Of a stretch of DNA of 64,000 nt, positions 424-62,123 are shown piece after piece. Source of the DNA: a virus. The notes beneath the pieces were generated by a model. That model worked only from the letters and a program-made list of their open reading frames with translations, was not told where the DNA came from and did no database searches. The position numbers and the translations under genes are program-made. Positions within the stretch are counted from its first letter, which is position 1; every line of letters starts with the position of its first letter. Location of the stretch: IMG/VR virus record IMGVR_UViG_3300045988_166613, positions 1 to 64,000 of that record; one strand, 5' to 3'.

Positions 424-455
424 AGAGTAGGAGAGTTTTCTTCTACTCTTTTTTA
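424..455 (+). terminator. rho-independent terminator between convergent genes
   Basis: AGAGTAG (424-430) pairs with CTACTCT (443-449) and is followed by TTTTT. A second hairpin AGGGTAGAA/TTCTACCCT lies at 329-358. Confidence 0.5.
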
Positions 456-457
456 AT

Positions 458-838
458 TTATTTTTCTTTAGCTTTATATTCTATGATTTGCTTTATTTCT
501 GTAATGTCATCTTTAGTGATCTTAACATCATCTTGAATGGAATCAACTTTTGAATTTATTTCTTTATTAAAGCTTTTAAACTCATTAACTGATTCTCTAA
601 ATAAATTCATGGCATCTTTAAACATATGTTTATCTTCTTTATTTTCTAATTTTAAAGCTGTAATCTCATCTAAAAAGCATTGTCTATCTTCTTGATTACG
701 ATTTTCCATTTTATCTATTCTTTCATCTTGTTTTTTAATTCTATCTGTTACTATTTTATAAGCTATATATCCTATTAAGAGGCACATTACAATAGGAAAA
801 CCATGTTTATCTATTGCCTCCATTATAATTTTTTCCAT
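458..838 (-). CDS. BhlA/UviB-like holin-like membrane protein (TM helix + coiled coil)
   Basis: ORF 458-847. The best start is ATG 838, 5 nt after GGAGGTGA. The hydrophobic helix FPIVMCLLIGYIAYKIV followed by a charged coiled coil resembles the BhlA/UviB family. Confidence 0.5.
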   Translation of the reverse strand: MEKIIMEAIDKHGFPIVMCLLIGYIAYKIVTDRIKKQDERIDKMENRNQEDRQCFLDEITALKLENKEDKHMFKDAMNLFRESVNEFKSFNKEINSKVDSIQDDVKITKDDITEIKQIIEYKAKEK

Positions 839-887
839 TGTTGTCACCTCCTCTCAAGTCAAATATAAATTACTTGATTAGAAGGTT

Positions 888-1901
888 TTAACTAAATAAT
901 TGGTTTGCTTCCTCATCATTATTTCTAAGATCGTAGAATGATGACGTAGTCGAGATGTTATTGTGTTGCGCTACAAATTTTGATACAACTTTTATATCTT
1001 TACCCTTTGATAAAAGATTTGTTATACATGAACCTTTAAATAAATGTGCATTTATCCTTCTACCTAATATATCAGATAAAGTATTGGCACAAAATTCATT
1101 TGCCCATTCTCTGCTAATCATATGAATTTCTCCATTATATTTGCATGTAAATATGTACTTATGATTATATCTTCTTTTTTCTAGCCATAACTTAATATAT
1201 CTTAAAGCTTCTTCATTAACCATATAATGAACTCTCTTACCATCAGAACCACGACCTTTTTCTCTTACATAATTAGAATAAACAAAAGTTTTCCCCTCTG
1301 GTATTTCTTGTTCGGCTATTGATGATTCAAATTGTCTAATACCTCCTCTTCTTGCACCACAATTAAATGCACAAGCAACCCATGCAGCACCCATATAATT
1401 TTCATCATCAATTAATGCATCTATCAATATTTTATATTCCTCTTCTGATATAGGAATTTTTTCATAAACATAGTTTCTAGGTATATCTTTGTATGCTTTT
1501 GTAAAATTTCTAAAAGATTTATATTCTTTCATTTCATCATCTTCTGATACTACATCTTCTATATATCCACATAAAGATGATACAGATGATTTTTTAAATT
1601 TTAAAGCACTACTTGACATCCCTCTATTAACCAAATAACTCATATATCTTACAAAATCTCTTTTCTTTACTTTATGAAAAGGCTTATCATTACAGCTAGT
1701 ATGTAACCAATATACAAATTGTCTTAATCCAGATTTATATTGAGTTCTAGTATCTTTGCTTAATTGAGACTTAACTTCAAAAAATTCTTGCACCATTTCT
1801 CTGTTTTCATAGTTACACTCATTGTACATTTCATCAGTGACCACAGGTAACTTTAAAGCTCTTTCACGTACCATATTTTTTTCTATATTAGTTTTTGTCA
1901 T
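888..1901 (-). CDS. tyrosine recombinase/integrase-family protein with divergent box II
   Basis: SAM-like N-domain (TRTQYKSGLRQFVYWL), GARRGG, AHLFKGS at the usual HxxR position, and the C-terminal box HNNISTTSSFY. AAGGAGG RBS. Confidence 0.7.
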   Translation of the reverse strand: MTKTNIEKNMVRERALKLPVVTDEMYNECNYENREMVQEFFEVKSQLSKDTRTQYKSGLRQFVYWLHTSCNDKPFHKVKKRDFVRYMSYLVNRGMSSSALKFKKSSVSSLCGYIEDVVSEDDEMKEYKSFRNFTKAYKDIPRNYVYEKIPISEEEYKILIDALIDDENYMGAAWVACAFNCGARRGGIRQFESSIAEQEIPEGKTFVYSNYVREKGRGSDGKRVHYMVNEEALRYIKLWLEKRRYNHKYIFTCKYNGEIHMISREWANEFCANTLSDILGRRINAHLFKGSCITNLLSKGKDIKVVSKFVAQHNNISTTSSFYDLRNNDEEANQLFS

Positions 1902-3044
1902 TTAGAATTCCTCCTTTGTATTTATTTTATTTAATAGCATATCTTCTATATTGCTTTCAAAATAAGGTATTTCCAACAAATTTATATTATGAGTTTTACA
2001 ATAAGTTCTTTTAAAGCTATCGTTTTCTTTTTGTTTATTAAATTGCTCAATTCCACCAAAAATTTCAACTGGCTTATAATGTTGAACTCCTTGATACTCA
2101 ATGCATAAATTATAATCTTCTAAATAAAAATCAAATGGTAAAGGTTTACTTTTTCTACAATCATTAAATCTAAATTCTCTTTTATATTTTATTTTATGTC
2201 TATCTAGAATATTTTTTATAGTTTCTTCACCAATAGATTTTGTACATAATCCACAACCGTGTCCTTCTAATAAGTGACTTGCACGAATAGAAAAAATACT
2301 ATTACATTTGTTACAATATACTTTGATATGATCCCTACCTTTAATGTAATTAGATATAACTTTATATTTATCACCATGTATTTTATTTACTTTCTCTATA
2401 AATTCATCATGTGAATATCTAATTTTAGATAATTGTTTTTCTTTAGAACAATAAATGCAAGGATGTGATTTTGATATCATTCCACCCCAACTTTTATATT
2501 GAATACCCTCATCTCTATGTTTATTACATATAAAAGGTAATTTCTCTTCATTGTTGATGTATTTATTAGCTAAAATTTGAATATTATAATCTTTTAAAGC
2601 TTTTTCAATTATATCTTTAATCTTATTACATCTACTTTCCCTAAATGAAATTTTCTCACATTCTGGACAAAGAATTGAGCCATTTTTTATAACATTCCAG
2701 CTTCTTTGAAAAAATATATTATGTATCAAACACTCCCATTGCATTTTATATGTAGCATTTTGAGGATTTTTAGTTATTAACTTTAAAGGAATATTGTTCA
2801 ATTTTAAATAATTATTAATATTATTGTAAGTATAAATATTATGTTGAAAAAATATTGCAGGTTTAGTTTTTCTTCTATATAAAGTTGATAAATTTTGAAT
2901 ATTAAGAAAATACAAATATCCATTTTTATCTTGAAATGAAATCTTGTCAGATGTACTATATGTTTTAATCTTTGAAATATTATCTATACATTTTAATTCC
3001 AAATAATCTAAAAATTTATTTAACCTATCCATATTTAAAGCCAT
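1902..3044 (-). CDS. Zn-ribbon-repeat nuclease with PD-(D/E)XK/Vsr-like C-terminal domain (free-standing homing-endonuclease-like)
   Basis: Repeated Cys pairs (CPECEK, CIYCSKE, CNKCNS...CGLC) followed by PFDFYLEDYNLCIEYQGVQHY. Paralogous to 26884-28890 and 62980->64000. Confidence 0.6.
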   Translation of the reverse strand: MALNMDRLNKFLDYLELKCIDNISKIKTYSTSDKISFQDKNGYLYFLNIQNLSTLYRRKTKPAIFFQHNIYTYNNINNYLKLNNIPLKLITKNPQNATYKMQWECLIHNIFFQRSWNVIKNGSILCPECEKISFRESRCNKIKDIIEKALKDYNIQILANKYINNEEKLPFICNKHRDEGIQYKSWGGMISKSHPCIYCSKEKQLSKIRYSHDEFIEKVNKIHGDKYKVISNYIKGRDHIKVYCNKCNSIFSIRASHLLEGHGCGLCTKSIGEETIKNILDRHKIKYKREFRFNDCRKSKPLPFDFYLEDYNLCIEYQGVQHYKPVEIFGGIEQFNKQKENDSFKRTYCKTHNINLLEIPYFESNIEDMLLNKINTKEEF

Positions 3045-3080
3045 TAATCATCGCTTCCTTTCTAATAGTTTTTATATAAA

Positions 3081-3111
3081 TAAAAAAGAACCAAGAAATT
3101 AATCTTGATTC
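3081..3111 (-). terminator. rho-independent terminator after recombinase gene
   Basis: Minus sense: GAATCAAGA-TTAATT-TCTTGGTTC followed by TTTTTT. Confidence 0.6.
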
Positions 3112-3133
3112 TTCAATAATTTTCAAATTTATT

Positions 3134-4423
3134 TTATTTTGATAATGGACTATCATTCACTATCTTTCTTAATTCTACATCATCTACATGAGTATATATT
3201 TGAGTTGTAGATATATTTTCATGTCCTAATATCTCTTGGATAAATCTTATATCTACCCCTTCTTTTAAATACATTGTAGCTGCACTATGTCTAAGTTTGT
3301 GAGGAGTATATTTTTTATCTTTAAATCCTGCGTTCTCTATGTGTTTTTTTACTAAATCTTCAACCGCTCTTGCTGTTATCTGTGTTTTTCTTTTTGATAA
3401 AAATAAATATTCATTGTAATTATTTAATTCTTTTCTATCTTTTAAATAATTATTAATTGCTTTTATACATTCTTCATTTAGATAAACTGTTCTCTCTTTA
3501 TCTCCCTTACCTATAATAGTTATAGTATCTTCTTTTATATCCTTTAATTTTATATTACATAATTCAGATAATCTCATTCCACAATTTAAAAATAGTACAA
3601 ATATACAATAATCTCTACTATAATATTTCTTTCCTTTATTCATAGATTCTAAAACTTTTTTACTTTGATCTAAGGTTAAATAAACTGGAAGTCTTTTCTT
3701 TATTTTTGGAGTTTCCAATTCTATTGTAGGGTTTTCATCTATTACTTTCATTTTTACATTTAAAAACTTAAAGAAAGATTTTAAAGTAGCAACCTTTCTA
3801 GCTTTTGCATAAGCACTATTCTTTCTGTCTATTTCTACATAATTTAAAAAATCATATAAATCAGATAATGTTATATTTCTTATAAAATTATCATCAACAT
3901 ATCTTATGTCAACATTATCATAATTCTCCTCAACATCTTGATTTCTTCCAACTAGATACTTAAATAACAATGTTAAGTCATATGTATAATTTTTTATAGT
4001 ATTAGGACTTTGTTCTTTGATATTTTTTAAATAAGATACAAAATCATCAACTCTTTTAGGTAGTTTGTTTTCCTCTATTTTTTTAATTTCAACTTTTTTA
4101 TTCAACTCTAATTGTATGTTTGAATTATCGTTCAAATTCATTTTTTCATCAGAATTGAAGCTATCTAATTTTAATTCTTCAACCCACATTTGGATAATTC
4201 TTTTATTTTTTTTGTATATGTTCGCTATTTCATCTACAGACATGTTCATTTTATTGTAAAAAATATAAATATGTTCTATGTAATTTTCATAATCTCTAGC
4301 AACTCCTAAACTATCATAATTATTATATATATCATTTAAATTATCCATATCTTTACTATTAAATATATTATTTGAAATTATTTCATTAACATTTTGTTCA
4401 TATATCACCTTAAAACACCTCAT
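3134..4423 (-). CDS. tyrosine recombinase, XerC/XerD-like (integrase or resolvase) with N-terminal HTH extension
   Basis: Canonical boxes GMRLSEL, HKLRHSAATMYL and LGHENISTTQIYTHV. RBS AGAGGT upstream of the ATG. Confidence 0.85.
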   Translation of the reverse strand: MRCFKVIYEQNVNEIISNNIFNSKDMDNLNDIYNNYDSLGVARDYENYIEHIYIFYNKMNMSVDEIANIYKKNKRIIQMWVEELKLDSFNSDEKMNLNDNSNIQLELNKKVEIKKIEENKLPKRVDDFVSYLKNIKEQSPNTIKNYTYDLTLLFKYLVGRNQDVEENYDNVDIRYVDDNFIRNITLSDLYDFLNYVEIDRKNSAYAKARKVATLKSFFKFLNVKMKVIDENPTIELETPKIKKRLPVYLTLDQSKKVLESMNKGKKYYSRDYCIFVLFLNCGMRLSELCNIKLKDIKEDTITIIGKGDKERTVYLNEECIKAINNYLKDRKELNNYNEYLFLSKRKTQITARAVEDLVKKHIENAGFKDKKYTPHKLRHSAATMYLKEGVDIRFIQEILGHENISTTQIYTHVDDVELRKIVNDSPLSK

Positions 4424-4459
4424 TTTGACCTCTAATTTACTATATTATAACATATTTTC

Positions 4460-4483
4460 TTCGTAAAATCTATATTTTACGAA
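4460..4483. promoter_or_regulatory. perfect 9-6-9 palindrome (candidate recombinase core site or operator)
   Basis: TTCGTAAAA-TCTATA-TTTTACGAA, 37-60 nt upstream of the XerC/D-like gene start. Confidence 0.4.
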
Positions 4484-4618
4484 GTTAAATTGTAAAATAT
4501 TTACCTAATGAGATGTAAATGAATTCTGTTGAAAAATCAAATTTTAAAATCAATACAATCTAGTAAATTATAATATAAAAGCGATTTAAAATTTAAAAAT
4601 TCAACAGAATAGATATTA

Positions 4619-4936: not shown

Positions 4937-5006
4937 ATAAAATCACTCCTTTCAAATATAGAGTAGAATAGGGTAGTTGTATTTCTACCCTATATATTTT
5001 ATATTT

Positions 5007-7560: not shown

Positions 7561-7580
7561 AAATTAATAACCTCCATATA

Positions 7581-7609: not shown

Positions 7610-8404
7610 TTATTCCACTTCTACGTATTTAGCATCAACATATCCTCTTTTTTTGCCATGAGAAGTGTTGTATTCTATATAATACCACCCTGTTTCAGTC
7701 CATACTATAGTAATTTTTTCATTATTAAATACTTTTCCTATAATATTTCCATCAATATCATCTCTAACATTAAGATAACTATTAACTTTAACTATGCCCT
7801 GTTTAACTTTAGCCTCTTCATAGAATCTTTCTGATTGTTGTCCTTCATATCTAACATATCCATCTGTTGGAGTTCCGTCTTCTCTATAAAATGTTATACG
7901 CAACCATCCATTTTCTCTATACATAGGAGAAGCTTTTTTATTAGGTTTTAACACTTCATCATGTTCTGTTTTATTTACATTTTCTGAACTCCACCATACA
8001 TATGTATCTCCATCATCATTTTGATACTCCATATGATAATCAAAAGATATTCTATTATAATTCTCTATAGAAATATAAGCATGATATTTTTTATCTCCAC
8101 TAGGATAAATTACTTCTATAAATTTACTTGAAGGATATATTCCTAATACAAATATTTTATCTAAGCTAGAAATATATCTACCTTCTATTGGATTACATTT
8201 ATCATCTAATACTTGAATATTTCCTTCACCAACTATAGTTGCATTGGTTTTAGTTATATCACTTTCGTAAAAGCAATAAGGATTATCTTTTTTGATAGTT
8301 GTTATACTTGAAACTTTATTACCTTCTAATCTTGCTTTAAAGTCATACCATCTAGCCCAATTGTTAGGTGAAAAAGTTTGAGGACAGTTCTTTCTACTTG
8401 CATC
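7610..8404 (-). CDS. endolysin exon 2 (end of amidase_2 domain + SH3-like cell-wall-binding domain)
   Basis: Begins DASRKNCPQ, which continues the amidase motif interrupted at 9806. The C-terminus (GIVKVNSYLNVRDDIDGNIIGKV...GWYYIEY) looks SH3_3-like. Confidence 0.75.
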   Translation of the reverse strand, partial: DASRKNCPQTFSPNNWARWYDFKARLEGNKVSSITTIKKDNPYCFYESDITKTNATIVGEGNIQVLDDKCNPIEGRYISSLDKIFVLGIYPSSKFIEVIYPSGDKKYHAYISIENYNRISFDYHMEYQNDDGDTYVWWSSENVNKTEHDEVLKPNKKASPMYRENGWLRITFYREDGTPTDGYVRYEGQQSERFYEEAKVKQGIVKVNSYLNVRDDIDGNIIGKVFNNEKITIVWTETGWYYIEYNTSHGKKRGYVDAKYVEVE

Positions 8405-9805
8405 CGTTTTCTTCACAAGAAGTCGTTAATTTCTTGCAGTTCTCTTATGAACTTCTATAGCTTTCACTATAAGACGAGACTATATCATCATCTCATTTTG
8501 AGATGCCTTACGTTTCCATTTAAAAGGTCTTATTATCACCTAATTACGGCTTTGCCTTACCACTTGGCTGTACTCTACTCCCTTCCGTATTTCTACGTGG
8601 TTTCGATAGTCGTTGAGATTAATTATTGCTTATTTTTAATTTATTTTCTTTAAATTCATAATATTGTTTTGGTGTATTATTTCCAATTCCATATATACTA
8701 TGAAATTCTTTATGCAAATTTTCCGTTAAACACACACCTAATCCATATTTATTATGTAATTTATTACAAGTTTCTACTAATAAAAATAATTCTTCCTTAG
8801 TATATTCACCAATTTCTTTATAATCTAATTTCACTTCTTTTAATGTTTCCTTAACTATATCTGAAAAGTTATATAAATGATGGATAACTTGAAATCTTTC
8901 GCCTGTTATATCACATTTGTAATTACAAGCCTTCATACTAGCTCTTTTCCATTCATTTAAATGTCTACGTAAATATTCATGTAAAGGCGTAACTCCACCC
9001 TTCCAACAATAGTGATTTTCTAATTTAATAGTTTTGTTGCATTTTTTACAGTGAGGAGTTAATTGAAATGCAGATAAACTTTTATGATCTATTTCTCCGC
9101 ATTTACATCTAAATTTTAGTAAGCCTGCTCCATTTTTATAATCTACATAATTACTTAATAACTCACATCCATGTTTTTCAAAAACATTAACTATTTGTTC
9201 TTTTGTTATTCGCCTTTGTTTAACATTTTTCTCTATACCGCATTTTATACACCTGATATCTTTATTTATAAAATCACTTAATTTAACTTCAGATTTATTA
9301 CCACATTCACAAATATATTCTACCTTTGAAAAAACACCATTTTTTAATTCATTACTTAATAATTTGCAACCTCTCTCTTTAAAAATATTTTCAACATCTT
9401 CTATTTTATACTTTTTCCTTTTAGCAAAATTGATTTTGGTGCTATTTAACTCTAAATCACAAAATTTATATATATCAACAATTGACTTTATACCAAATTT
9501 TTTGAAGATATATTGAATAGACGGTAAATTATTAGAATTTTTAAAATCTCTAATATTTATCTTATTATTTTTGTTATAAAAATCTCTTACTTTTAAAATT
9601 AATTCTTCTTTTGATATTTCTTTTTGTTTTCCCATCTTATTTTCACCTCCATATATTATATATTATCACAAACAATAATTAATCTGCTGATTGTCCATTG
9701 TTACATCTTTAAAATTGTTACACTTTGGTACTTAAAGCTTTAGGAGTTTCCAGCATATATAAGGTTTTTCGATACGTATCGCTACGTAAAGCTACCATGT
9801 TATTA
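8405..9805 (-). mobile_element. group I-type intron in the endolysin gene, carrying a homing endonuclease ORF
   Basis: Stops in the exon frame. The 5' exon ends in U and the intron ends in G. GGTAG near the 5' end can pair with exon CTAT. GATGATATAGTCT resembles the conserved group I core element. Both non-ORF flanks are GC-richer and structured. Confidence 0.7.
8619..9635 (-). CDS. intron-encoded Zn-ribbon-repeat HNH homing endonuclease
   Basis: Repeated CxC/CxxC modules (CECGN, CIKCG, CKCGE, CKKCN) followed by the HNH-type motif QVIHHLY...NLHKEFH. GGAGGTGA RBS. Confidence 0.7.
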   Translation of the reverse strand: MGKQKEISKEELILKVRDFYNKNNKINIRDFKNSNNLPSIQYIFKKFGIKSIVDIYKFCDLELNSTKINFAKRKKYKIEDVENIFKERGCKLLSNELKNGVFSKVEYICECGNKSEVKLSDFINKDIRCIKCGIEKNVKQRRITKEQIVNVFEKHGCELLSNYVDYKNGAGLLKFRCKCGEIDHKSLSAFQLTPHCKKCNKTIKLENHYCWKGGVTPLHEYLRRHLNEWKRASMKACNYKCDITGERFQVIHHLYNFSDIVKETLKEVKLDYKEIGEYTKEELFLLVETCNKLHNKYGLGVCLTENLHKEFHSIYGIGNNTPKQYYEFKENKLKISNN

Positions 9806-10195
9806 ATAGTGCCTAACGACCTTACTATTAGGTATTCCATATTTCTCTTGAATATCTTTAACTAACCATAAAGTATTTTCGATAGTTTGTTCTGCTATAT
9901 CACCTTTAGTTTTGCACATCTCTATTCCTATACTATTTCTATTTCCTATACCATATCTATCATATCCATCACCGCAATGAAAAGCACTATCATGTTCTCT
10001 AACAACTTGAGTTATAGAATCTTCATCAACAAAATAATGAGCTGAAGCCCTTCTATGTCCTGTACAAAAATAATTTGCGTTACCTTCATCTGTATCATCA
10101 TAATTTCCTGTATCATGAATTACAATATATTCAGGATTGTTTGTACCTACCCAATGATCGTCATTATCAAATCTATATTTCATTTCTACTGACAT
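9806..10195 (-). CDS. endolysin exon 1 (N-acetylmuramoyl-L-alanine amidase, amidase_2/PGRP fold)
   Basis: IVIHDTGN...AHYFVD...GIEMC...VVRHY then an in-frame stop. Start ATG 10195, 9 nt after AAGGAG. Confidence 0.75.
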
Positions 10196-10225
10196 ATAAA
10201 ACATCTCCTTTTATTTTATTACATT

Positions 10226-13317: not shown

Positions 13318-16300
13318 TTAAAAATTAATAAACTCAGATAATGACAGCAAACAATTTATTCTACCATTAGTCTGAGTTGTTATCTTTATAATATTTAATT
13401 TATTTGTTTCTAAAAATTTAGATATTTCTATATTACAATCTTCATTTATATTTGAAGTAACTAATTTATCATTAACATAAACGCCTATAGAAGTTGGCAT
13501 TGTGGTTTCAATTATTTTATATTTTGGTTCATGTTTATGATTGTCTAGCTGAATTACGTGATTATGATTTGGCAATCCATGCTTATGATTATCTTCTAAA
13601 TGATAGTGTTTATTAACTATTTGAATAGAAGGTTTTTTATTATTTAGCAAATCTTCTATATCATTTTTATTTATCGTTATATTTTCTCCTCCTATCTGTG
13701 TTTTAGAAGCACTAGATAAGTAAGTAAAAACTCCACTATTCATATTTGTGGTTTTAATTATAGCACCACCAGCTTCAACACCTTCAAACCCAACTCTATA
13801 TTTAGATAAATGTAAAAATAATTTTGCTTCTCTTAATTCTATGTTTTTATATAGATATATTGGAAATTCTATAGGATGAGCTTGATCTATATTATCACAG
13901 AAATTCAAACTATCGTTTTGTAGCATACCTTCTCCAGATAATACAATCTTCCCATTTTTATCATATAGAATTAAGCTACTTTTATTTTCTCCTCTTATAC
14001 TATATATACCTACTCTTGCCCTAAGTGTTTTACCAGAATCATACACACTAATACCATAATCATCTATCTTTATAGATTTGTTAGGATTAACTAATTTCAT
14101 TCTTTCTCCTAATATTGCTGTTCCCATAATACTTTTTGCAACTAATCCTTTCTCATCTGCAACAGTTTTACAAGTTTTCCAATTATCATTAGTTACTGCA
14201 AAAAAACCAGCACCCATATAAAATTGTTTTTTTCTAGTTTTATCTGATTTGTCCGTACACCAAACACCAGTACCAGTAATATCTAGCTCATTTATATTTT
14301 GATTACATTTTATAGGAATGGAATTAGCTTGAATCCCATACTTTTGAATATTTTTAAAGTTATTAGTTGCTACAGAGCTATCTACCCATGTATTTCTATA
14401 TAAATTTATAGCGTTAGCACTTCTATTTATTTTGTTTAAACTTATGTTTCTTATTGTTTTTAAATCATGTAATACAAACTTAGAATTATTAAATTCAACA
14501 TTAGATATTTTGGCTTGAGAATTTTCTCTTGAAGGAGTATATTTAAATCCTGTTATTCTAACTTCTCCACCTTCTATTTCCTCTTCCCCATCCATAATAT
14601 GTGCTACATCACCTAGCTTAACAATATTTTTCCATCCTCTAGGATGTCTTGTTAACCCAACCACATCTGTTGTAAAATCAATGGGTAACATATTTCTTTC
14701 ATTTAATACTCTTTTTGCATTATCAAATAATTCTTTATCATCTGTGTAATAATCATCGGATAATCTAAGAGAATAAATACATTCATCTAATTCATTTAAA
14801 TCTTCTTCGCCAAAAATTACTCCTATTTCATCTTTAGCTGTTTTTTTATCTAATGCATTATTACAATTCCCCATATTAATATCTAATTGCTTGATTTCTT
14901 CCTTTAATATATTTAAAGTTTTTATAAGGCTATTTAAATCATTATTTAATACTTCTATTTCTGCTTCAAGTTTTTTAAATTCCATTTGTTGTTCAAAACT
15001 TCTATCTTCTCCTGCTTTTATATAAGCTATTTTTATAGATTTTTTGACTTCTAATTGATCCCTAACTAATTGTAGCTTTGATTCTATATAAATACTCTGT
15101 TTATTCTTCTCATCTTTTTTCTTTTTATATGAATCCCACTCATTAAAAACCTTATTTATATAATTATTATATCTTTGCAAAGATAATTGTAATTCATCAC
15201 TTATATTTCCTTGTTTTAAAAGATATGTAAAATCTTCTATATAATTAGTCCCTAATGGATTAACACCATTTATACTTAATCCATCTTTACCCTCTACAAC
15301 CAACCTAGTTACTATGTCATCAGATTTTAAATCCTTATCTATTTTCATTAGATATTGGTCATAATATAGATAAAATCCATTATCTCTTCCCATAGTTTGT
15401 CTATCATATACATTTACAAGCTTATTTATAGTGTCAAATTGGAATATACAATCATATGCTTTCTCTACCATATCTCTTAAAAAAGGCAACCATTGATGAA
15501 TTCCTTTTTCAAAACTTCTATATTTAGTCTTAGTTTTTTCTACTTTATTTCCAGTCTCATATGTTAAAACAATATCTTTAAAATTAACATCTAATCCTTG
15601 TAAATATGTAAATTTCTCAACTTCTTTTTTAATAAATCCATTAATTAATGTAAATTCATATCTTATTACAGTATTATAACTATTATCAATGCTATATGAG
15701 GCTTTAATATGTCTAATTCCCTCTGCAAAGTTTTCAAACTTATGTTCATAGTTTTCCGTTTTAGTTACATTGCTTTTAGAATCTGTGCTTACAATGTTAT
15801 TATATTTGATACTAAAATTAAGAACTTCATCAGGAATATTAATATAGATATCTTTATCAAATAAAACTTTATCTACTTGAACATCTTTAACATTTAAATT
15901 ATTATATAAATCTATATCTATGGTTTCATTAAATAAACCAATAGTTGATTTTGCATTAGGATCAATATATCCAACTTTCCAACTTGTTTCATTTTCAAGC
16001 CAATTTAAAACACCTTCTTCAACATCAATTTTATCTCCTTTAGATTTATATAATTGAAAAGTTCCTTCTTGTACGGCAACATCTTTTTTGTTTAGATTTA
16101 TTTCAAAAGATTTAGCTGTAAACTTCTTTTTCTTAATGTGTTTATTAGATTCTATTTTAAAATCTCCACATATCTCATATCTATCACCATTATATATGAT
16201 TTGTCTCTTAGGCTTAAATTTATCAAATAAAGGATTATCGATTGTTTCTCCTCTTCTTTGAACTTTAGAAGGAACACTTAAAGTCATAGTGAAACAATCT

Positions 16301-33299: not shown

Positions 33300-33342
33300 T
33301 AATAAATTCCTCCTTTTGTTCTTTTGTTTAATTTATTTTTAA

Positions 33343-36852: not shown

Positions 36853-36922
36853 TAATTTTATCTCTCCATTTCTTTAATTTATTTAATAAAGAGGAGTATT
36901 TAACCCCTCTTTATATCTTTTA

Positions 36923-40015: not shown

Positions 40016-40064
40016 TTTCTCACCTCCTTTTAAAAGGATAATTTTATTTAATTATTTAATTTAT

Positions 40065-40238
40065 TTAAAAATGCAATCTATTTGATTGGAATACATTTTT
40101 ATTTGACATCTTTAAATTTTTAGGATTTGTAAATAAATACACCTTTTCACCTTTTATAGTTTCAGTTCCTACAAACTTAAATCCTTGTTTAATTAACATT
40201 TCTTTAGTTTTTTCATCTGTACATTTTATAAAATTCAT
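40065..40238 (-). CDS. small hypothetical protein
   Basis: ATG 40238 after AGTAGGTG. Confidence 0.4.
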   Translation of the reverse strand: MNFIKCTDEKTKEMLIKQGFKFVGTETIKGEKVYLFTNPKNLKMSNKNVFQSNRLHF

Positions 40239-52841: not shown

Positions 52842-55616
52842 CTATTTTTCACACTTTTTAACTATTTTATATGTATTTCCAAATATATATTCTGTTCCAT
52901 TTTTATCTTCTATTAATATCTTATCCTCTAAAATATTATTGCTTTTAAAACACTTCAAGACATATTGTGCATTATTGTTATATAATAATGTTAATACTAA
53001 AGATGTCATATCTGAAAACTTTTTATCTGTTTCTTCTTTAATAATACCAAAAGCTTTTCTTAATACTAACATTACTGTATGATTGTTTAATTTTATAGTT
53101 CTTAATTCTTCTAAAGCTTTCTTCTTAGCGTTTCTGCTAATTGTATATCTAGCCTTCTCCCCATATTTTTCTTTACAAGACAATGTTTTACACCAACCAA
53201 TAGTTCTATTGCACTTAACTATAATATCTAATATTTTTTGTTGTTGTCCTTTTTTATCTGGTTCACCTTTTCCTAGTTCAGAATATTTTACCAATAGATC
53301 TTTTACATTAATTAATTTAGTAGATAAAGTTTTTCCCAATTCATTATCCATAACATCTTGTAGATAATCCATTCCACAATCTAAATGTTTTAACGTTCTA
53401 AACTTATTATCCGCTATCTCTCCAAAGAATTTAGGTACTATCATTTTCTTAATTATTTTTTCTTTTCCATCTTCATCTTTTAATGTTTCTTTATCAAAAT
53501 CTAATATATTTTTATTATTAACTCTCCATTTATTTATTTTTTGCATTTCCATTAATAATGACATTCTCTTACCATTGTTATCCATAAAGCTTTTTTTAGC
53601 CATATCAATAGCTATTTGAGAAAATGATGATAACATTGAACTTGCATCATATAGTTTTTGTATAAGTTCCTTATCGCCATTGTTGGCTATATAGTGCCAC
53701 ATATAAGCATTACATATAGCACTTTTATTTACTATTTGTCCTATTGTTCTTGTAGATTGTCCTAAGTAATTATCTAATTCTGCTAATTCTTCAAGTGTAT
53801 CTCTTTTTAAATCTGTTTTCCCTTTTATAGCATTAATAGGTGTATAATATTTATCCATACATTCCTTAGCCTTAGAGACTATTGTGGGCTGTTCTATTAA
53901 TAAAGCACTATCTATATCAAAATCACATCCTTGAAGTCTATTCATTACATCCACATCATATGTATTAAGTACAACTACAAAATCACTTAAATTAAACCAT
54001 TTGTACTCATTATGATATGTATTGGTAACATGAGCTATATTTCCACTATTTATTTGTGGATTTCTTATCATGCATAACTCTTTATTATTATCAAATCTAG
54101 GGCAATATACTTCCCACCCATGACTTATACTCTCTGTAACCATTTCTTCTTGTGTAGTTTGTTTTAGCATAGTATATGGACATGAAAATAATATAGAGTA
54201 TAATGAATTAGTAATTCTAACTTTACCAGTTCTAACATCTTTTATGTAGTTATTAATTTGTTTTGATTTATAATCTTTAAATGCTTTTGTAAATCTATAA
54301 TCACTATTTACAGATAATAAATCACTAATCATTTCACCAGATGATAATTCAAGACTATTATTACCTATATAATGCATAAAATATGTCATATCATTTTTTT
54401 TCTTTGTTATTTCTTCTCTTTGTTTCTTACTTAATTTGTTACCTATTGCACCATTTTCAATTAAACAGTTATTTTTTAACATTTTAATATAATTAATCTC
54501 TTCTTGAGCTATTTCTTTAACTTCATCATAATTTAATTCTAATGAATTTATCATTTGATAAGATAATCTATTAGCATAACCATAGTTGCCTATATGATCT
54601 GTTTTTACCACGCCAAACATTGAATCTATATGTGACCACCAATGTAAATAACATTCTTTCTTAGAACTAAATTTATTGGCAAACTTTAAGAATTTACAAC
54701 TAGAAGGGGTTATAACTAATTTAATATCCTTACTATCTACCCAACCTCTATACATATCATAAACTTTAGTTATATTGTTTTCTCTATAATATTGTTGTAA
54801 TTTAGTATTAAAAGCTGCACACTTAGTAAAATCATTTCTTAATAATGCTACTGAATGTCCTTTAATTATTTCATTTTTTTCAAAAACAGATTCATCCAAT
54901 AAGCCTTGTCCATCTGTCATATTATTTTGTACTGGATAATCTTCATATTGATTAACTACTATTTCATTATCTTCATTTCTTTCTGTAACAGAAGCTTTAA
55001 CTTTCATTTCTTTACCCATTACATCATCAATAATAAGAATTTCTTCTCTTTTTATATCAATTGTCCCTATTATTCCAGACATTATTAAAGATATATAAGC
55101 ATTTTTAGAAGTTAAATCACAATAATCTCCTATAGGAAATTCTAATCCCAATAAGCATCTATCATATAAATCTTTATACATTTTCTCTTTTATAAATATA
55201 GCACTTGCAGTTCTTGCCTTACTTCCCCCTCTCTTAAACATTTTATATTTTATTCCATTTATTTTAAATCCTTCTGTATAAAGATGTTTTCTTATCTTTT
55301 TAACATCTAATTCTTTCTTACCATCAACCTTATAATGCTTTGTAAAGTTAACATTAACAAATAAATCTGTGTAATATTTATCATCCTCCTCTCTCCATTC
55401 ATTAGGATATTTTTCATTAGCCCTTATAGTTTCTAGACTATAAGGTATTGTTGCTGAATATAGAACATCTTTGGTAAATAAAAACTCTTTTGTATCCTTT
55501 CCATCTTTATCTTTTTTCTTTTTCTTTGTATTGTATCCTATCTTATCATCCTCTAATTGTGCTTTATATATGTATGCTGATTCTAAATTTAATATATATG
55601 TATTTTCTGCTCTCAT
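52842..55616 (-). CDS. YonO-like single-subunit RNA polymerase (double-psi beta-barrel, RdRP-related)
   Basis: CMIRNPQINSGNI followed by GCDFDIDS (DxDxD triad, codons at 53910-53924), the pattern of cellular RdRP/YonO-type polymerases. An HU-like gene lies downstream, like yonO-yonN in SPbeta. Confidence 0.6.
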   Translation of the reverse strand: MRAENTYILNLESAYIYKAQLEDDKIGYNTKKKKKDKDGKDTKEFLFTKDVLYSATIPYSLETIRANEKYPNEWREEDDKYYTDLFVNVNFTKHYKVDGKKELDVKKIRKHLYTEGFKINGIKYKMFKRGGSKARTASAIFIKEKMYKDLYDRCLLGLEFPIGDYCDLTSKNAYISLIMSGIIGTIDIKREEILIIDDVMGKEMKVKASVTERNEDNEIVVNQYEDYPVQNNMTDGQGLLDESVFEKNEIIKGHSVALLRNDFTKCAAFNTKLQQYYRENNITKVYDMYRGWVDSKDIKLVITPSSCKFLKFANKFSSKKECYLHWWSHIDSMFGVVKTDHIGNYGYANRLSYQMINSLELNYDEVKEIAQEEINYIKMLKNNCLIENGAIGNKLSKKQREEITKKKNDMTYFMHYIGNNSLELSSGEMISDLLSVNSDYRFTKAFKDYKSKQINNYIKDVRTGKVRITNSLYSILFSCPYTMLKQTTQEEMVTESISHGWEVYCPRFDNNKELCMIRNPQINSGNIAHVTNTYHNEYKWFNLSDFVVVLNTYDVDVMNRLQGCDFDIDSALLIEQPTIVSKAKECMDKYYTPINAIKGKTDLKRDTLEELAELDNYLGQSTRTIGQIVNKSAICNAYMWHYIANNGDKELIQKLYDASSMLSSFSQIAIDMAKKSFMDNNGKRMSLLMEMQKINKWRVNNKNILDFDKETLKDEDGKEKIIKKMIVPKFFGEIADNKFRTLKHLDCGMDYLQDVMDNELGKTLSTKLINVKDLLVKYSELGKGEPDKKGQQQKILDIIVKCNRTIGWCKTLSCKEKYGEKARYTISRNAKKKALEELRTIKLNNHTVMLVLRKAFGIIKEETDKKFSDMTSLVLTLLYNNNAQYVLKCFKSNNILEDKILIEDKNGTEYIFGNTYKIVKKCEK

Positions 55617-55685
55617 TTGTTATTCTCCTTTATGTATGCATTTATTATATTTATTAATTCTTTAATTTATTTTAATAATATGTGT

Positions 55686-56417: not shown

Positions 56418-56497
56418 TGTTTATCTTCTCCTTCTCCCATTTCATTCTCTTTAAAATCACGAATTTAACTTAATTCTTTAATTTATTTCAACATTTG

Positions 56498-57999: not shown

Positions 58000-58028
58000 A
58001 TTATAATACTAAATCCAAAATAAATCAA
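58000..58028 (-). promoter_or_regulatory. sigma-A-type promoter TTGATT-N17-TATAAT preceded by an AT-rich 12-mer
   Basis: Minus sense: AAATAAATTAAATAAATGATTGATTTATTTTGGATTTAGTATTATAAT. Confidence 0.5.
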
Positions 58029-58054
58029 TCATTTATTTAATTTATTTTAACATT

Positions 58055-59839: not shown

Positions 59840-59887
59840 ATGTATTTTATCCTCTCTCATTTATATTTTTTATTTTATAAATATGTA

Positions 59888-60673
59888 TTATGCAGCTTCT
59901 TGAACTTTTTCAATTAAAGGTAATATGTCATTTTCTTTTAATAAGTTATATAAGAACAATCTACCCTTTTGAGTCCATTTAGTGTTTATCTTTGTTCTAA
60001 CTTCACCGTTATTATTCTCATATTTATATGTATCTGATTTTGTATATCCACAACTTTGATATTTGCTATATAATAACCATTGACCACTTTGTTTATATTG
60101 AATTCCTAAATCATGCAATGTTTTATTCATTGTTTGTCCACTTAAACCATAATCTTTGGCTATTTGTGTAATAGTTAAAGCATCTACCGATTTTAATATT
60201 ACATCTGTATAATCAGCCTTTGGTTTTAACTCTCCTATTACTTGATCTTTTTGTTTATTTTCTAGTTCTAATTTTTCATTTCTTTCTACTTGTTCAACTA
60301 GCTGTAGTAATGCTTCTTTATATGTTTGAGGTAATCTTTTAGTAAAACTTTCTTTTAATTTCTTTTCACAAGCTATAAAATATTTTCTTGCTTCTTTTCC
60401 TTTTTCTGTTCCAGTTAACATAGAAATTTCTTTTGCCATATCTGTAGTAATAGCATAATCTTGTAATTCTCGATTAGCTCCATTATTTACAACCGTACCT
60501 GTAAGTACACTTGTAAAATCAACTCCTTCTTCGAATCCATATTTATTATCAGGTTTTATGTATTGCTTCATCCATACACTAAATCTTTTACTAAGTTCTA
60601 AGAAACCGTATAATTCCCTAGCACTAACCAAATGTTGTCCATTTCCTTCTTTAATTTTAATTAGTTCATTCAT
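59888..60673 (-). CDS. antirepressor-like protein (AntA-type N-domain + KilAC-like C-domain)
   Basis: VSARELYGFLE...FSVWMKQYI...DYAITTDMAKEISML...ARKYFI, then ...TITQIAKDYGLSGQTMNKTLHDLGIQ. Confidence 0.6.
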   Translation of the reverse strand: MNELIKIKEGNGQHLVSARELYGFLELSKRFSVWMKQYIKPDNKYGFEEGVDFTSVLTGTVVNNGANRELQDYAITTDMAKEISMLTGTEKGKEARKYFIACEKKLKESFTKRLPQTYKEALLQLVEQVERNEKLELENKQKDQVIGELKPKADYTDVILKSVDALTITQIAKDYGLSGQTMNKTLHDLGIQYKQSGQWLLYSKYQSCGYTKSDTYKYENNNGEVRTKINTKWTQKGRLFLYNLLKENDILPLIEKVQEAA

Positions 60674-60856
60674 TTTATCCTTCTCCTTTATATGTATTAA
60701 TTCTTTAATTTATTTTAACAATAGTTTTATTTTATTCTATAAGCCTTTGTAATCAATTTTATTTTTAAGAATATAATTTATCCTCTTATTCTACAAAACC
60801 TCTCACACAAGCTTATATTAGTCTTTAAATTGATGTCATTCCCTATGACACTTATT

Positions 60857-60885
60857 ATATTACACCTTTAATTTCAAAATGTCAA
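60857..60885 (-). promoter_or_regulatory. sigma-A-type promoter TTGACA-N17-TAATAT preceded by an AT-rich 12-mer
   Basis: Minus sense: AAATAAATTAAATAAATGATTGACATTTTGAAATTAAAGGTGTAATAT. Confidence 0.5.
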
Positions 60886-60917
60886 TCATTTATTTAATTT
60901 ATTTCAACATTTTTTTA

Positions 60918-61661
60918 TTATTTCTTTTTAACTACTACCCAACCTTCCTCTTTTAGCTTTTGTTTGTATAATCTCATTGCTCCATTTAATTCATTCTCCC
61001 AACCATCTTTATATATTACATATGTATTACGAGATTCTTTTATCTCTCCTGTTATAGTATTATGTATTTGCCCTATATTATCATATTTTATTAATTTTAG
61101 ATTTACTAATTCATCAATATATTTCTTTATATTACCCTCACTAATAGAACAATTATTTTTTATATCTTTGTAGGAAGGAAAACCTACCTCATACAATCCA
61201 TCATTTATATCCTCATGTTTTTGTCTTTTATAAATTCTAGCTTTTATTAAACAAAACAATTTCAACAAATTTATCTTCTTAGATTTTGTTTTAGATTTCA
61301 TTATCCAATCATATTGATATTGTTCTAGCTTAAAAAAGCTGTTATTTATTTCTTCTAATTCACAAACTATTAAGTCATTTAACTTAAATCTATTTGTATT
61401 TGTAATAATTTGCTTATCTTTTATTAGTATTTTTAATACATCTTTAAATTGATCATTCGTTTTACCTTTAGTATCATTTAACTTATATCCCGATTCTTCT
61501 ATACAATTTGCAAGGGATATATAAGCTTTATTAAAACCAGTTCTATGCATATTTATGTATAACATGATTAAAAAGGCTTTTTCACCATATTGGTTTAATA
61601 TACTTTTATCACCAATAATTAGGTCATTAGGTATAGCACTACTCCCCTTATTAATCTTCAT
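60918..61661 (-). CDS. replication-initiator/organizer-like wHTH protein (tentative)
   Basis: ATG 61661 after GGGGGAGAT. Two predicted wHTH-like segments. Palindromic sites lie just upstream. Confidence 0.4.
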   Translation of the reverse strand: MKINKGSSAIPNDLIIGDKSILNQYGEKAFLIMLYINMHRTGFNKAYISLANCIEESGYKLNDTKGKTNDQFKDVLKILIKDKQIITNTNRFKLNDLIVCELEEINNSFFKLEQYQYDWIMKSKTKSKKINLLKLFCLIKARIYKRQKHEDINDGLYEVGFPSYKDIKNNCSISEGNIKKYIDELVNLKLIKYDNIGQIHNTITGEIKESRNTYVIYKDGWENELNGAMRLYKQKLKEEGWVVVKKK

Positions 61662-61706
61662 TTTATCTCCCCCTTTCTTTATATTTTTATAATGTGTCAT
61701 TTTAAC

Positions 61707-61773
61707 GAGTATGGGAAAAACCCATACTCAGATTGTGATTTTTGGGATTTGAGTATGGTAAAAACCCATACCC
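61707..61773. promoter_or_regulatory. pair of related palindromes (operator or iteron candidates)
   Basis: GAGTATGGG-AAAAA-CCCATACTC (61707-61729) and GAGTATGG-TAAAAA-CCCATACC (61751-61772). CGCTA is repeated four times at 61834-61875. Confidence 0.45.
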
Positions 61774-62123
61774 GCAGAGGTGTAATAAAATACTAATATA
61801 TAATAAAATACTAAATATTCTCTCTCAGCCAAAACGCTAAACGCTAATTTGTCTAGAGAGGAGTTCGCTACGCTATTTCTTTTTTTGGTTTTTGTTCTGT
61901 TCTTTTTTATTCTACTCTTTATTTTTTATAATTTCAACTAATTATTTAATTTATTTCAACTTTTTAGTTTTTCAAGTCTTATCCATACCCTCTCAGGTCG
62001 CATTGTTTCGTGGCAAAAATGAGATTCTGTTCATTTATTTGCTTGAGTTGATAAATTATAAGTCTGAGCTTCTAAATTTAAAATATAGCTCATTTTTTGA
62101 CCATAGTACCGTTGAGAGTTATA

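Follow-up and report, generated by a model that had tools for sequence, protein, structure and literature searches.

An exact A/T-only 12-mer repeated in gene sense in a Clostridium SPβ-like prophage, a predicted counterpart of the SPBRE operator

Results

Genes and features of the window

The window, i.e. the whole stretch of 64,000 nt analysed here, is part of an element of ~150 kb, which has an early arm in convergent orientation. The source element is a large Clostridium SPβ-like prophage, and the gene order of SPβ is kept for the homologues of YomM (53% identity), YomG/H/I, YonD/F/G/J and YonO. The YonO-like RNA polymerase (RNAP) of the window shows 22% identity to SPβ YonO (E 1e-8). The other genes neighbouring the repeat include those of an HTH_36 protein (60918-61700), an anti-repressor (Ant, 59888-60673, downstream of the 60704 copy), a DNA methyltransferase, an HU-like protein (52224-52487, followed by a terminator at 52186-52214) and, after the 33327 copy, a virion structural protein (32484-33299, also followed by a terminator). 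The HU and RNAP labels proposed in a first-pass annotation of this DNA are supported, while its tail tube and scaffold labels found no confirmation past "virion structural protein / unknown".

All copies of the repeat and the associated features are summarized in Table 1.

Table 1. Motif copies and associated features in the 64,000-nt window. Context 1, upstream of a -35 box; context 2, directly before a Shine-Dalgarno sequence.
Feature	Position	Strand	Remark
Motif copy, context 1	61945..61956	-	7 nt upstream of -35 box
Sigma-A-type promoter TTGAAA-17-TAGAAT	61909..61937	-	
Motif copy, context 1	60893..60904	-	extended block TGTTGAAATAAATTAAATAAATGA, then TTGACA
Near-consensus sigma-A promoter TTGACA-17 nt-TAATAT (TATAAT at 18-nt spacing)	60857..60885	-	
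~135-nt leader between promoter and next motif copy	60716..60852	-	conserved
Motif copy, context 2	60704..60715	-	30 nt before Ant ATG
Motif copy, context 1	58036..58047	-	also cassette's left boundary
Sigma-A-type promoter TTGATT-17-TATAAT	58000..58028	-	
Motif copy, context 2	56477..56488	-	also cassette's right boundary
Motif copy, context 2	55661..55672	-	RNAP ATG 44 nt on
YonO-like two-barrel RNA polymerase gene, 924 aa	52842..55616	-	Pfam RdRP PF05183, 4.9e-11
Motif copy, context 2	52519..52530	-	HU-like ATG 31 nt on
Motif copy, mid-ORF of TROVE/DUF2828-like gene	50346..50357	-	
Motif copy, late operon	40055..40066	-	overlaps stop of 60-aa ORF
Motif copy, late operon	36873..36884	-	directly past terminator 36891-36909; ATG 20 nt on
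Motif copy, late operon	33327..33338	-	4 nt past stop codon; ATG 27 nt on
Motif copy in 3' end of 1035-aa minor tail gene	13394..13405	-	next ATG ~90 nt on
Motif copy in 3' end of HNH ORF	8635..8646	-	
Motif copy on stop codon of arm's last gene	452..463	-	

An exact, strand-specific word

The 12-mer AAATAAATTAAA (gene sense) is present in 14 copies in the window, where ~1 is expected. All 14 lie on the gene-sense strand and no antisense copy was found in the window, as the first-pass annotation had stated. That annotation had listed at least 11 copies; each of its coordinates corresponds to the exact word TTTAATTTATTT on the plus strand, and the extended versions that it quoted are correct. 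The three copies that it overlooked (8635, 13394 and 50346) are all within ORFs. The 452 copy does not lie upstream of any gene; it partly coincides with the stop codon that ends the last gene of this arm.

Dinucleotide shuffles of the whole window yielded a mean of 0.97 copies and a maximum of 5, in agreement with the earlier estimate of about one chance copy. With Markov models (order 1-5) built from intergenic DNA alone, the intergenic expectation was 0.12-0.69, compared with the 10-11 copies observed. The exact word is thus enriched 14-fold to ~100-fold, whereas its one-mismatch variants are not (17 extra versus ~19 expected in all). Together, these results show that the A/T-only repeat is real and far above chance, and that what is maintained is the exact word and not a loose A/T pattern. 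Enrichment of the exact word without that of its near-variants is the pattern that a specific reader leaves.

A few copies deserve comment. The 50346 copy may be one of the ~1 expected by chance, but it is also kept in L021, a related contig. The complement of the 452 copy forms the T-tract of the convergent arm's terminator, and this copy is probably incidental. The HNH ORF that carries the 8635 copy sits within an insertion splitting the endolysin gene.

Two settings of the motif

Three copies are linked to the strong early promoters of the window, of which the motif block is the only common element. In each case 7 nt separate the motif from the -35 box, in keeping with the TTGAnn boxes reported earlier at 58036, 60893 and 61945, and a 17-nt spacer leads to the -10 hexamer. 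The motif thereby spans about -54 to -43, with its centre near -48. It is absent from the other sigma-A-like promoters of the window. The HTH_36 gene is driven by the promoter at 61909..61937, with a ~190-nt leader in between. A 23-mer containing the 60893 copy recurs elsewhere in the genome of the lineage, beyond the window, and the ~135-nt leader downstream of the 60857..60885 promoter is conserved in 5 lineages, with compensatory changes at 8 pairs.

Other copies directly precede genes. At 56477, a stop codon lies 10 nt before the motif and the methyltransferase ATG 59 nt after it. Seven copies had been described as close to start codons; seven they are, at a distance of 20-59 nt and not 20-55. 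The YonD-like gene begins with a TTG codon 39 nt past the 40055 copy. The late-operon copies share the 12-mer only, their flanks being different. Motif density is ~5x higher in the early arms, the replication operon included, than in the late operon. Only 1 of ~15 late terminators in the window is followed by the motif (36873), and no copy is present where the yonK/yonJ late block of the window begins. Terminators directly before the motif were also observed in L004, L006, L007 and L022. The motif-gene-terminator units around the probably abundant proteins (HU-like, capsid block, structural protein) look promoter-like.

Related lineages carry their own words

Nine related lineages, whose RNAPs are 64-91% identical, each possess their own sense-only A/T 10-12-mer. 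When the motifs of the 10 lineages are pooled, 104 copies are in sense and 2 in antisense. The same two settings recur in every lineage: a -35 box follows the motif in one, and the Shine-Dalgarno sequence comes directly after it in the other. In the promoter setting, 6-8 nt separate the motif from the -35 box of a near-consensus sigma-A promoter downstream; this spacing is kept across lineages while the sequence of the spacer is not, and the motif is centred near -48 in each lineage having such copies. In many intercistronic spacers the motif is located 2-40 nt upstream of the Shine-Dalgarno sequence, and in L011 the upstream stop codon forms part of it. Copies at the portal gene, between terminase and portal, also occur in other lineages. 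One and the same 11-mer is present in L012 and L007, whose RNAPs are 64% identical, whereas the words of L012 and the window differ at 82% RNAP identity. No comparable repeat was found in L008 (RNAP ~50% identical).

Orthologous copies are kept in L001, L016, L017 and L021. Copies 58036 and 56477 bound a 1.56-kb PAPS-reductase cassette that is missing from L001. Since the junctions of cassette gain or loss fall inside the motif, both here and for another cassette in L021, motif copies do recombine. The motif appears to have another primary function, with cassette shuffling as a by-product.

Comparison with the SPβ operator SPBRE

SPBRE is the repeated operator of the SPβ master repressor MrpR/YopR (Lazarevic et al. 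1999; Kohm et al. 2023, PMC10516654). MrpR binds it in ChAP-seq and EMSA, and promoters are repressed ~5-fold (PMC10516654). We located 11 SPBRE copies in NC_001884, all co-oriented with the downstream gene. At aimR and yonX, 7 nt separate SPBRE from the -35 box downstream of it, and at yopM, yopV and a second yonX site (yonX#2) a Shine-Dalgarno sequence follows it directly.

Discussion

We favour the reading in which the 12-mer is an SPBRE-equivalent site read by a predicted lineage-specific phage regulator, and give it a probability of about 0.5. The motif is most likely a docking site for a phage-encoded regulator of early promoters rather than a generic UP element. This best-supported reading, an SPBRE-like repeated operator-type site, is absent from the candidates of the first-pass annotation, whose interpretation of the role of the motif is partly supported. 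The 12-mer would be the conserved core of a ~24-bp cis-regulatory DNA site, TGTT[G/A]AAATAAATTAAA[T/G]AAtTaA, the putative functional and positional counterpart of SPBRE, and its reader is predicted to be a phage-encoded, lineage-specific DNA-binding protein. In the prophage state, this regulator would occupy the sites abutting the -35 boxes of the strong sigma-A early promoters and keep them off. It would also bind the stand-alone sites just upstream of ribosome-binding sites, where its occupancy could limit transcription entering the next gene, a few late genes included. Loss of the regulator would then release the whole co-oriented gene array. We infer all three components of this reading, namely protein binding, the repressive effect and the identity of the reader. 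Several observations count against it: the late-operon copies (40055, 36873 and 33327, together with the terminase-portal copies of other lineages), the promoter-like motif-gene-terminator units, the differences from SPBRE in sequence and in placement relative to the -35 box, the failure to find an MrpR homologue in the window or any fetched locus, and the asymmetry of the site, which is unusual for classical dimeric repressors.

The main rival, which we consider unlikely but well worth retaining, is that the motif is the promoter, or promoter core, of the phage's YonO-like single-chain RNAP, with transcription starting at or just past its 3' end. Wherever a copy precedes a sigma-A promoter, the two would make up a tandem promoter, used by the host RNAP early and by the phage RNAP later. 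The phage does encode such an enzyme, no promoter sequence has yet been defined for enzymes of this class (PMC5467207), and the motif combines a compact, asymmetric form and high information content with a strict gene sense. The copies that lie 20-59 nt before starts, in tight spacers with no room for -35 and -10 boxes, those directly past terminators and the motif-gene-terminator units at the HU and structural genes all point in the same direction, as do the lineage-specific variants, which recall T7, T3 and SP6 promoters. However, SPβ YonO has a single promoter, upstream of yonK, and the SPβ genes bearing SPBRE show no dependence on YonO (PMC5467207); we found the region upstream of yonK to be neither A/T-rich nor provided with a comparable repeat. 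The distribution of the motif also argues against RNAP recognition, which the first-pass annotation had proposed and which is weakened here while staying a live rival: copies are densest in the early arms, lacking at the yonK/yonJ head and nearly always lacking after late terminators, and they occupy the positions that the MrpR operator has in SPβ. Conservation of the distance to the host -35 box across lineages and the lack of a repeat in L008 also speak against it, while the comparisons of L012 with L007 and with the window are neutral to weakly negative.

A second rival, which we hold to be rather improbable, makes the motif a docking site for the host RNAP via a phage activator or minimal sigma-like factor. 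Next to a sigma-A promoter it would serve as a class-I-type activator site, and at the other copies as a T4-late-like promoter. Its fixed centre near -48, in the window as in all lineages with promoter-linked copies, is consistent with this proposal, as are the -10-like hexamers (T[A/G]AAAT, TG upstream) that overlap the 5' edge of early copies. Such words are trivial to find at 26% GC, however, and a promoter scan gave fewer matches in the real than in the shuffled sequence. Moreover, the linked promoters, being near consensus already, need no activator, and none of the scanned proteins showed a sigma-like or known activator domain.

An action of the motif in mRNA, as the site of a RegA-like regulator, a Shine-Dalgarno-adjacent enhancer or an endonuclease processing site, fits poorly and is less probable again. 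The strict gene sense, the proximity to Shine-Dalgarno sequences in many spacers and the stop codon within the L011 motif would suit it. Since the promoter-linked motif DNA is upstream of the transcription start, such roles cannot account for the fixed 6-8 nt to the -35 box, which tells against the RNA processing site and the translational enhancer suggested earlier. In addition, the SPβ equivalent is bound as DNA by MrpR, and an exact word that differs from one phage lineage to the next is not something that host ribosomes or RNases would require.

The UP-element-only explanation, which also fits poorly and which we rate as very improbable, takes the motif as a host alpha-CTD site or generic A/T spacer whose exactness is kept by recombination (concerted evolution), with no reader. 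The geometry proposed earlier does suit 3 of the 14 copies, and the cassette junctions inside the motif agree with recombination. Most copies, however, have no promoter downstream, those 2-40 nt before a Shine-Dalgarno sequence have no room for one, the motif is missing from the other sigma-A-like promoters of the window, no enrichment is seen for one-mismatch variants and each related lineage keeps a different exact word. The late-operon copies share the 12-mer alone, too short a stretch of homology to be maintained by conversion. Finally, that count and strand bias are artefacts of base composition, conceivable in a 26% GC genome whose coding strand is richer in A than in T, is rejected with next to no probability left, as shuffles and Markov simulations never approached the observed count, orthologous copies are kept, and the motif switches strand with gene orientation in the oppositely oriented convergent arm and elsewhere in the genome, which shows that the bias is not a composition artefact.

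Several known systems resemble the motif. UP elements, the alpha-CTD sites at about -59 to -38, are A/T-rich and positioned as the motif is at the three strong promoters of the window, but the motif is kept as an exact word, which changes with the lineage, and most of its copies are promoterless. The PeSL promoter-stem-loop repeats of T4-type phages are mobile regulatory cassettes that mediate modular shuffling; likewise, the Clostridium repeats serve as recombination junctions, although they are far shorter (12-24 nt) and have no stem-loop. The promoters of phage RNAPs such as those of T7, T3 and SP6 are compact, highly conserved and specific in orientation and lineage, like the motif, and those of the non-canonical two-barrel RNAPs (phiKZ, AR9 nvRNAP) are short and A/T-rich. 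They share with it a location just upstream of ribosome-binding sites and sometimes past terminators, and the Clostridium phage has its own RNAP. In contrast to them, the motif is enriched early and not late, keeps a fixed spacing to host promoters and is missing at the late block head, while the sole mapped YonO promoter, that of SPβ, is single and motif-free.

SPBRE differs from the motif in several respects. Its sequence (ACAAAtACAAAwAATATGTATA) is unrelated to AAATAAATTAAA, and most of its copies lie between a -35-like (TAGACA) and a -10-like (TATAAT) box, whereas the motif is upstream of the -35 box. SPBRE is not found in the SPβ late operon, whereas the late operon of the Clostridium phage has at least 3 motif copies, and each Clostridium lineage carries its own variant. 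No MrpR homologue was found in the window or any fetched locus, which for this lineage covered ~100 of the ~150 kb of its genome, and a database search with MrpR returned Bacillus-type proteins only. Both are A/T-rich, asymmetric, multi-copy sites (11 for SPBRE) of syntenic phages, each copy being co-oriented with the downstream gene; in both, some copies have a -35 box 7 nt downstream and others stand immediately in front of a Shine-Dalgarno sequence. SPBRE occurs at yorE, the head of the replication operon, and after yorL, as the motif does at the replication operon head and 53 nt past the PolIII-alpha gene in L022, and it precedes yonP-yonO just as the 55661 copy precedes the RNAP gene.

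The motif is an exact, over-represented and gene-oriented word

The A/T-only 12-mer occurs 14 times on the plus strand of the window as TTTAATTTATTT (in gene sense, AAATAAATTAAA) and never in the opposite orientation. The absence of reverse copies had been reported by the first-pass annotation, and the 11 coordinates that it listed are all exact. Its statement that the copies are almost always intergenic holds for 10-11 of them, but three additional copies (8635, 13394 and 50346) lie inside ORFs. Dinucleotide shuffles of the whole window gave a mean of 0.97 copies and a maximum of 5, in agreement with the earlier estimate of about one chance occurrence. Because intergenic DNA is still richer in A/T than the window as a whole (GC content 26%), the ~6.4 kb of intergenic DNA was also modelled alone with Markov chains of order 1-5, and 0.12-0.69 copies were expected where 10-11 were observed. 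The count, which it had been suggested might dissolve against a composition-matched background, is thus significant. A one-mismatch search added just 17 sites, where a total of ~20 is expected by chance. Since one-mismatch variants are not enriched, it is the exact word that is kept, rather than a loose A/T pattern. When aligned on the motif, early-region copies extend to ~24 nt, TGTT(G/A)AAATAAATTAAA(T/G)AAtTaA, while late-region copies have the 12-mer alone in common and do not share their flanks.

Nearly all genes of the window are on the minus strand and all 14 copies are co-oriented with the downstream gene. In the opposite arm, carried by L016 and L017, and in L019 and L022 (all contigs of the same lineage or close relatives), the motif strand flips with the genes and both settings described below are again present. 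Motif orientation therefore follows the genes and not base composition. We consider the motif real and biologically meaningful.

Motif copies are found in two settings

In the first setting (context 1), the motif lies just upstream of the -35 box of a sigma-A promoter. The three copies for which the first-pass annotation had proposed a TTGAnn -35 box all conform, each with a 7-nt gap to the box and a 17-nt spacer to the -10. In the second (context 2), it lies just before a Shine-Dalgarno sequence. Seven copies had been placed 20-55 nt from a start codon; the number was confirmed and the measured range is slightly wider (table). Context-2 copies are often just 4-14 nt past the preceding stop codon and, because this stop is so close upstream, they have no room for -35 and -10 elements. 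The copy at 452 is probably incidental because of its overlap with the last stop codon of the arm and with the T-tract of the convergent terminator.

Motif density is ~five times higher in early arms than in late genes, with 7 copies in an early stretch of ~10 kb of the window and 3-4 for every ~10 kb of L016, L019 and L022, against 3 intergenic copies in ~50 kb of late genes. The motif block is the sole element common to the three strong early promoters of the window. A sigma-A promoter hidden inside the motif (-35, TTGAAA or TTAAAA; -10, TAAATT or T[A/G]AAAT) was rejected as a general explanation, as spacings vary between copies. A consensus promoter scan found fewer promoter-like sites in the window than in shuffled DNA.

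Positions of motif copies and associated features (window coordinates unless a related contig is named)
Feature	Position (strand)	Description
Context-1 copies	61945, 60893, 58036	Exactly 7 nt, then TTGAAA, TTGACA or TTGATT, 17 nt, good -10 hexamer
Context-2 copies	60704, 56477, 55661, 52519, 40055, 36873, 33327	20-59 nt before start codon, just 5' of Shine-Dalgarno; 55661 is 44 nt before RNAP gene; 40055, 36873 and 33327 in late operon
Copy overlapping a stop codon	452	Overlaps stop codon of the arm's last gene; complement is T-tract of convergent-arm terminator
Copy in HNH ORF	8635	Within insertion splitting endolysin gene
YonO-like two-barrel RNA polymerase	52842-55616	924-aa ORF; Pfam RdRP PF05183, phrog_8308; distantly similar to YonO
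HU-like gene		After RNAP gene
dUTPase C-terminus	66-314 (+)	ORF in low end (1-314), part of convergent arm (L016, L017 11588 onward)
YomM-like ORF	888-1901 (-)	Tyrosine-recombinase-like
HNH/DUF723-type ORF	1902-3044 (-)	380 aa; between Xer-like and YomM-like genes
Xer-type recombinase ORF	3134-4423	
Endolysin gene	7610-10204 (-)	Amidase_2 part 9803-10204; SH3 part 7610-8416; uninterrupted in L016 (2911-4095); L017 locus 1707-4292
HNH ORF in endolysin insertion	8619-9635	
tRNA-like match	49729-49795 (-)	Rfam tRNA score 53.6 bits
503-aa ORF	49991-51502 (-)	DUF2828/DUF7788/vWA (TROVE/Ro60-like) domains
Ant leader	60716-60852 (-)	~135 nt, between strong promoter and Ant gene; counterparts L001 6321-6468, L005 4086-4221, L004 4754-4887, L002 4486-4621
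HTH_36 gene	60918-61700	
Iteron-like region	61960-62560	~600 nt non-coding, between HTH_36 and Cro/C1-type HTH genes
Cro/C1-type HTH gene	62594-62821	
Zinc-ribbon-rich nuclease-type ORF	62985-64000 (+)	Runs off window end
RNAP-proximal cassette	L021 4791-6840	Just before RNAP gene
HU-like to yonK-like gap	L006 7617-10079	GOLLD RNA (205 bits), four tRNAs, drum RNA
DUF3800-VIII RNA match	L010 (SPβ) 9409-9474	At place of non-coding RNA transcribed from YonO promoter

The endolysin gene seems to be split by an insertion of ~1.4 kb, which carries the HNH ORF and ~200 nt of G+C-richer non-coding sequence. The insertion is intron-like in appearance, though no Rfam intron family reached threshold there. 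Several nuclease-type genes of the element may be mobile.

Each related lineage has its own word

Relatives were gathered via the RNAP, and lineages with 64-91% RNAP identity were compared. Each has its own over-represented A/T word, almost exclusively in gene sense: AAATAAATTAAA in the window and L001, AAATAAATTA in L005, AAAATAAATAAA in L002 (Clostridium sardiniense), AAAATATTAAA in L011, TAAATATTAAA in L012, ATAAAATTAAA in L004, TAAATTTTAAA in L013 and L006, and AAATATTAAAA in L007. Enrichment like that of the window was found in 9 relatives. Word counts equalled or exceeded the maximum of 300 order-3 Markov simulations in every lineage and were above it in all but L012, where the 5 copies observed equal the simulated maximum of 5. 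Pooled over lineages, 104 copies are sense and 2 antisense. Both contexts were observed in all lineages except L011 and L012, which have context 2 only, no context-1 copy being present in the sampled ±10 kb. Over all lineages, 6-8 nt separate the motif from the -35 box; within any one lineage this gap does not vary in length, but its sequence is not conserved. Late-operon copies are also present in other lineages. No such repeat was detected in L008, a more distant locus (RNAP ~50% identical, different structural genes), and the plasmid-maintenance genes of L007, which are on the other strand, have no motif copy. Motif variants change along the RNAP identity series, yet L012 and L007, whose RNAPs are 64% identical, have an 11-mer in common, possibly an ancestral state. 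The incongruence between motif class and RNAP tree was treated as neutral, since it is compatible with such a retained state. We found no publication describing the motif in Clostridium elements.

A stretch of 1.56 kb (promoter, leader and PAPS-reductase-like gene) is present in the window but not in L001, and its two junctions are inside the motif copies 58036 and 56477. The cassette of L021, a close relative, comprises a motif-bearing strong promoter, a 517-aa ORF and one further motif copy; it is bounded by motif-bearing modules, and upstream of it remains a duplicated piece of the RNAP 5' end. The motif repeats therefore also act as recombination junctions.

The Ant leader is kept across five lineages, with a common AGAGGTTTT block and 8 predicted pairs with compensatory changes; it may act as an RNA regulator of the anti-repressor. 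DNA looping between paired sites ~189 bp apart was rejected, this constant distance being better explained by the conserved leader RNA.

The motif is carried by a large SPβ-like element

The gene that the first-pass annotation called RNAP is supported by its Pfam and phrog matches (table). SPβ homologues are found in SPβ order: YomM (53% identity), YomD/C/G/H/I, YonD, YonF, YonG, YonJ and YonO. An identical YomM-like protein is encoded by contigs of 152-155 kb, which reveal a convergent arm with dUTPase, NrdD/G, YpsA and YopX genes, to which the first 314 nt of the window belong. Other pieces of the lineage encode a TubZ partition system, a MerR-type gene and a replication operon collinear with SPβ yorH/yorJ/yorL. 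The window is therefore ~40% of an SPβ-like element of ~150 kb. Maintenance as a plasmid is suggested as a possibility by the TubZ system of L019 and by plasmid-type Rep genes of the relatives L004, L012 and L013. No close annotated relative was found in phage or plasmid collections, locus searches started from the YonD-like or the YomM-like protein alone gave no match, and searching for exact matches to the XRE and HTH_36 proteins yielded no useful one.

Several non-coding regions were also noted. The iteron-like region, with repeated words ATACCGAG, TATCGGTAA and TTACCGAT, may serve as a replication origin; at the corresponding position, L007 carries other iterons (TCGTAAGT). The 503-aa ORF is ~200 nt upstream of the tRNA-like match, at which ARAGORN calls no tRNA; together they may represent a Ro60-type protein with a tRNA-like or Y-RNA-like partner. 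Between the HU-like and yonK-like genes, where L006 has its RNA cluster, other relatives have ~1-kb non-coding gaps.

Candidate readers of the motif

The HU-like YonN homologue was rejected as reader: L002, with a canonical HU (55% identical to YonN), still keeps the motif system, and the motif is common to the window and L001 even though their HU arms differ. Neither recombinase-like ORF was retained as an MrpR analogue. ORF 3134-4423 is a Xer-type recombinase, unlike MrpR, and ORF 888-1901 is the YomM orthologue (53% identity), also unlike MrpR. The latter is far more conserved than its neighbours and, by alignment reading only, its HxxR box is HLFK in both YomM-like proteins, a Lys replacing the catalytic Arg. 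It may act in the late operon as a DNA-binding protein without catalytic activity. None of the neighbouring proteins encoded up to 10 kb on either side of the RNAP gene has a similarity pattern that tracks the motif class. Candidate readers are a fast-evolving MerR-type protein beside the partition genes and the small ORFs of the L019 operon driven by two tandem context-1 promoters.

The motif as a putative operator

The explanation that we favour, with a probability of about 0.5, is that the motif is an operator-type control site equivalent to SPBRE, the repeated element of SPβ, and read by a lineage-specific phage regulator. This putative role is argued by the SPβ precedent together with positional orthology, and by the conserved distance to host -35 boxes, which indicates a DNA-level constraint. 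The motif block is also all that the three strong early promoters have in common, and these need silencing in a temperate element. The higher density in early arms points the same way, and word turnover between lineages resembles immunity divergence. Against an operator stand the position upstream of the -35 box, the three copies in the late operon, and the motif-gene-terminator units (HU-like gene, YonD-like/capsid block, structural gene), which look promoter-like. It also counts against it that no MrpR-family protein (tyrosine-recombinase fold, PF22822/PF22823) was detected in the window or loci, which cover ~100 of ~150 kb, and that a database search with MrpR returned Bacillus-type members only.

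The main alternative is a promoter of the YonO-like RNAP, which we consider unlikely. It accounts well for context 2 and for the post-terminator copies, and the phage does encode its own RNA polymerase (924-aa ORF). However, YonO of SPβ works from one promoter only, which is in a region without such a motif, and in the window no copy precedes the yonK/yonJ block. The motif follows just 1 of ~15 sense terminators of the late region, and copies are biased toward early genes whereas the phage-RNAP-dependent genes of SPβ are late. In its broad form, the proposal is likewise doubtful: single-chain two-barrel RNA polymerases of the YonO type would have the motif family as their promoter class, with many such promoters in each genome of the Clostridium SPβ-like elements, a specificity switching between lineages as in T7, T3 and SP6, and a possible second role as a regulator's operator. 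If true, it would make the motif considerably more interesting. The motif sites could also show whether YonO-like polymerases recognise a defined promoter. Operator and RNAP promoter are not mutually exclusive, because five of 11 SPBRE copies are themselves within promoter-like -35/-10 hexamers.

A role as UP element only, one of those first suggested, is very improbable: the -40 to -60 position fits 3 of the 14 window copies and the others have no downstream promoter. Moreover, a generic pattern would be expected for the host alpha subunit, yet the exact word that is kept differs from lineage to lineage, and variants with one mismatch show no enrichment. The RNA processing or translational role also suggested at that stage, and any operator acting on RNA, can hardly apply to context-1 copies, which precede promoters and keep a conserved distance to the -35 box.

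Comparison with the SPBRE of SPβ

SPBRE was predicted in 1999. That it is the site bound by MrpR, a master repressor with a catalytically dead tyrosine-recombinase fold, was shown in 2023 with reporter fusions, EMSA and ChAP-seq (PMC10516654). We located 11 SPBRE copies in NC_001884, all co-oriented with the downstream gene. The core AATATGTAT is 7 nt upstream of the -35 box at aimR and yonX#1, three copies are 2-6 nt before the Shine-Dalgarno (yopM, yopV and yonX#2), and five are between a -35-like TAGACA and a -10-like TATAAT. SPBRE sites precede yorE (replication operon head), directly follow yorL (PolIII) and precede yonP-yonO; in the window's lineage, motif sites are found at the replication operon head, 53 nt past the PolIII-alpha gene (L022) and before the RNAP gene. 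This shared geometry and placement in syntenic genomes is, of the arguments on function, the strongest single one.

Like SPBRE, the motif has many intergenic copies, far above chance (14 vs 0.97), is co-oriented on both genome arms, and is at early promoters and early-gene starts in matching genomic positions. It differs in sequence, AAATAAATTAAA having no similarity to ACAAAwAATATGTATA. It also extends into the late operon, whereas SPBRE is restricted to early/lysogeny clusters, and it is upstream of the -35 box and not within the core promoter, unlike the five SPBRE copies inside a promoter-like hexamer pair.

SPBRE and MrpR were previously known from Bacillus SPβ only. The present comparison indicates that the wider SPβ-like group, including ~150-kb Clostridium elements with plasmid-type partition and replication genes, has as a conserved design feature a control word that is repeated and locked in orientation. 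The turnover of the word between lineages is as immunity specificity would predict, and the motif is a handle for finding the regulator (with the 24-mer as bait) and for defining the early promoters of these elements, which are unstudied. We would class it as a repeated control site of the SPBRE type that differs from SPBRE itself in sequence and placement and in reaching into the late genes.
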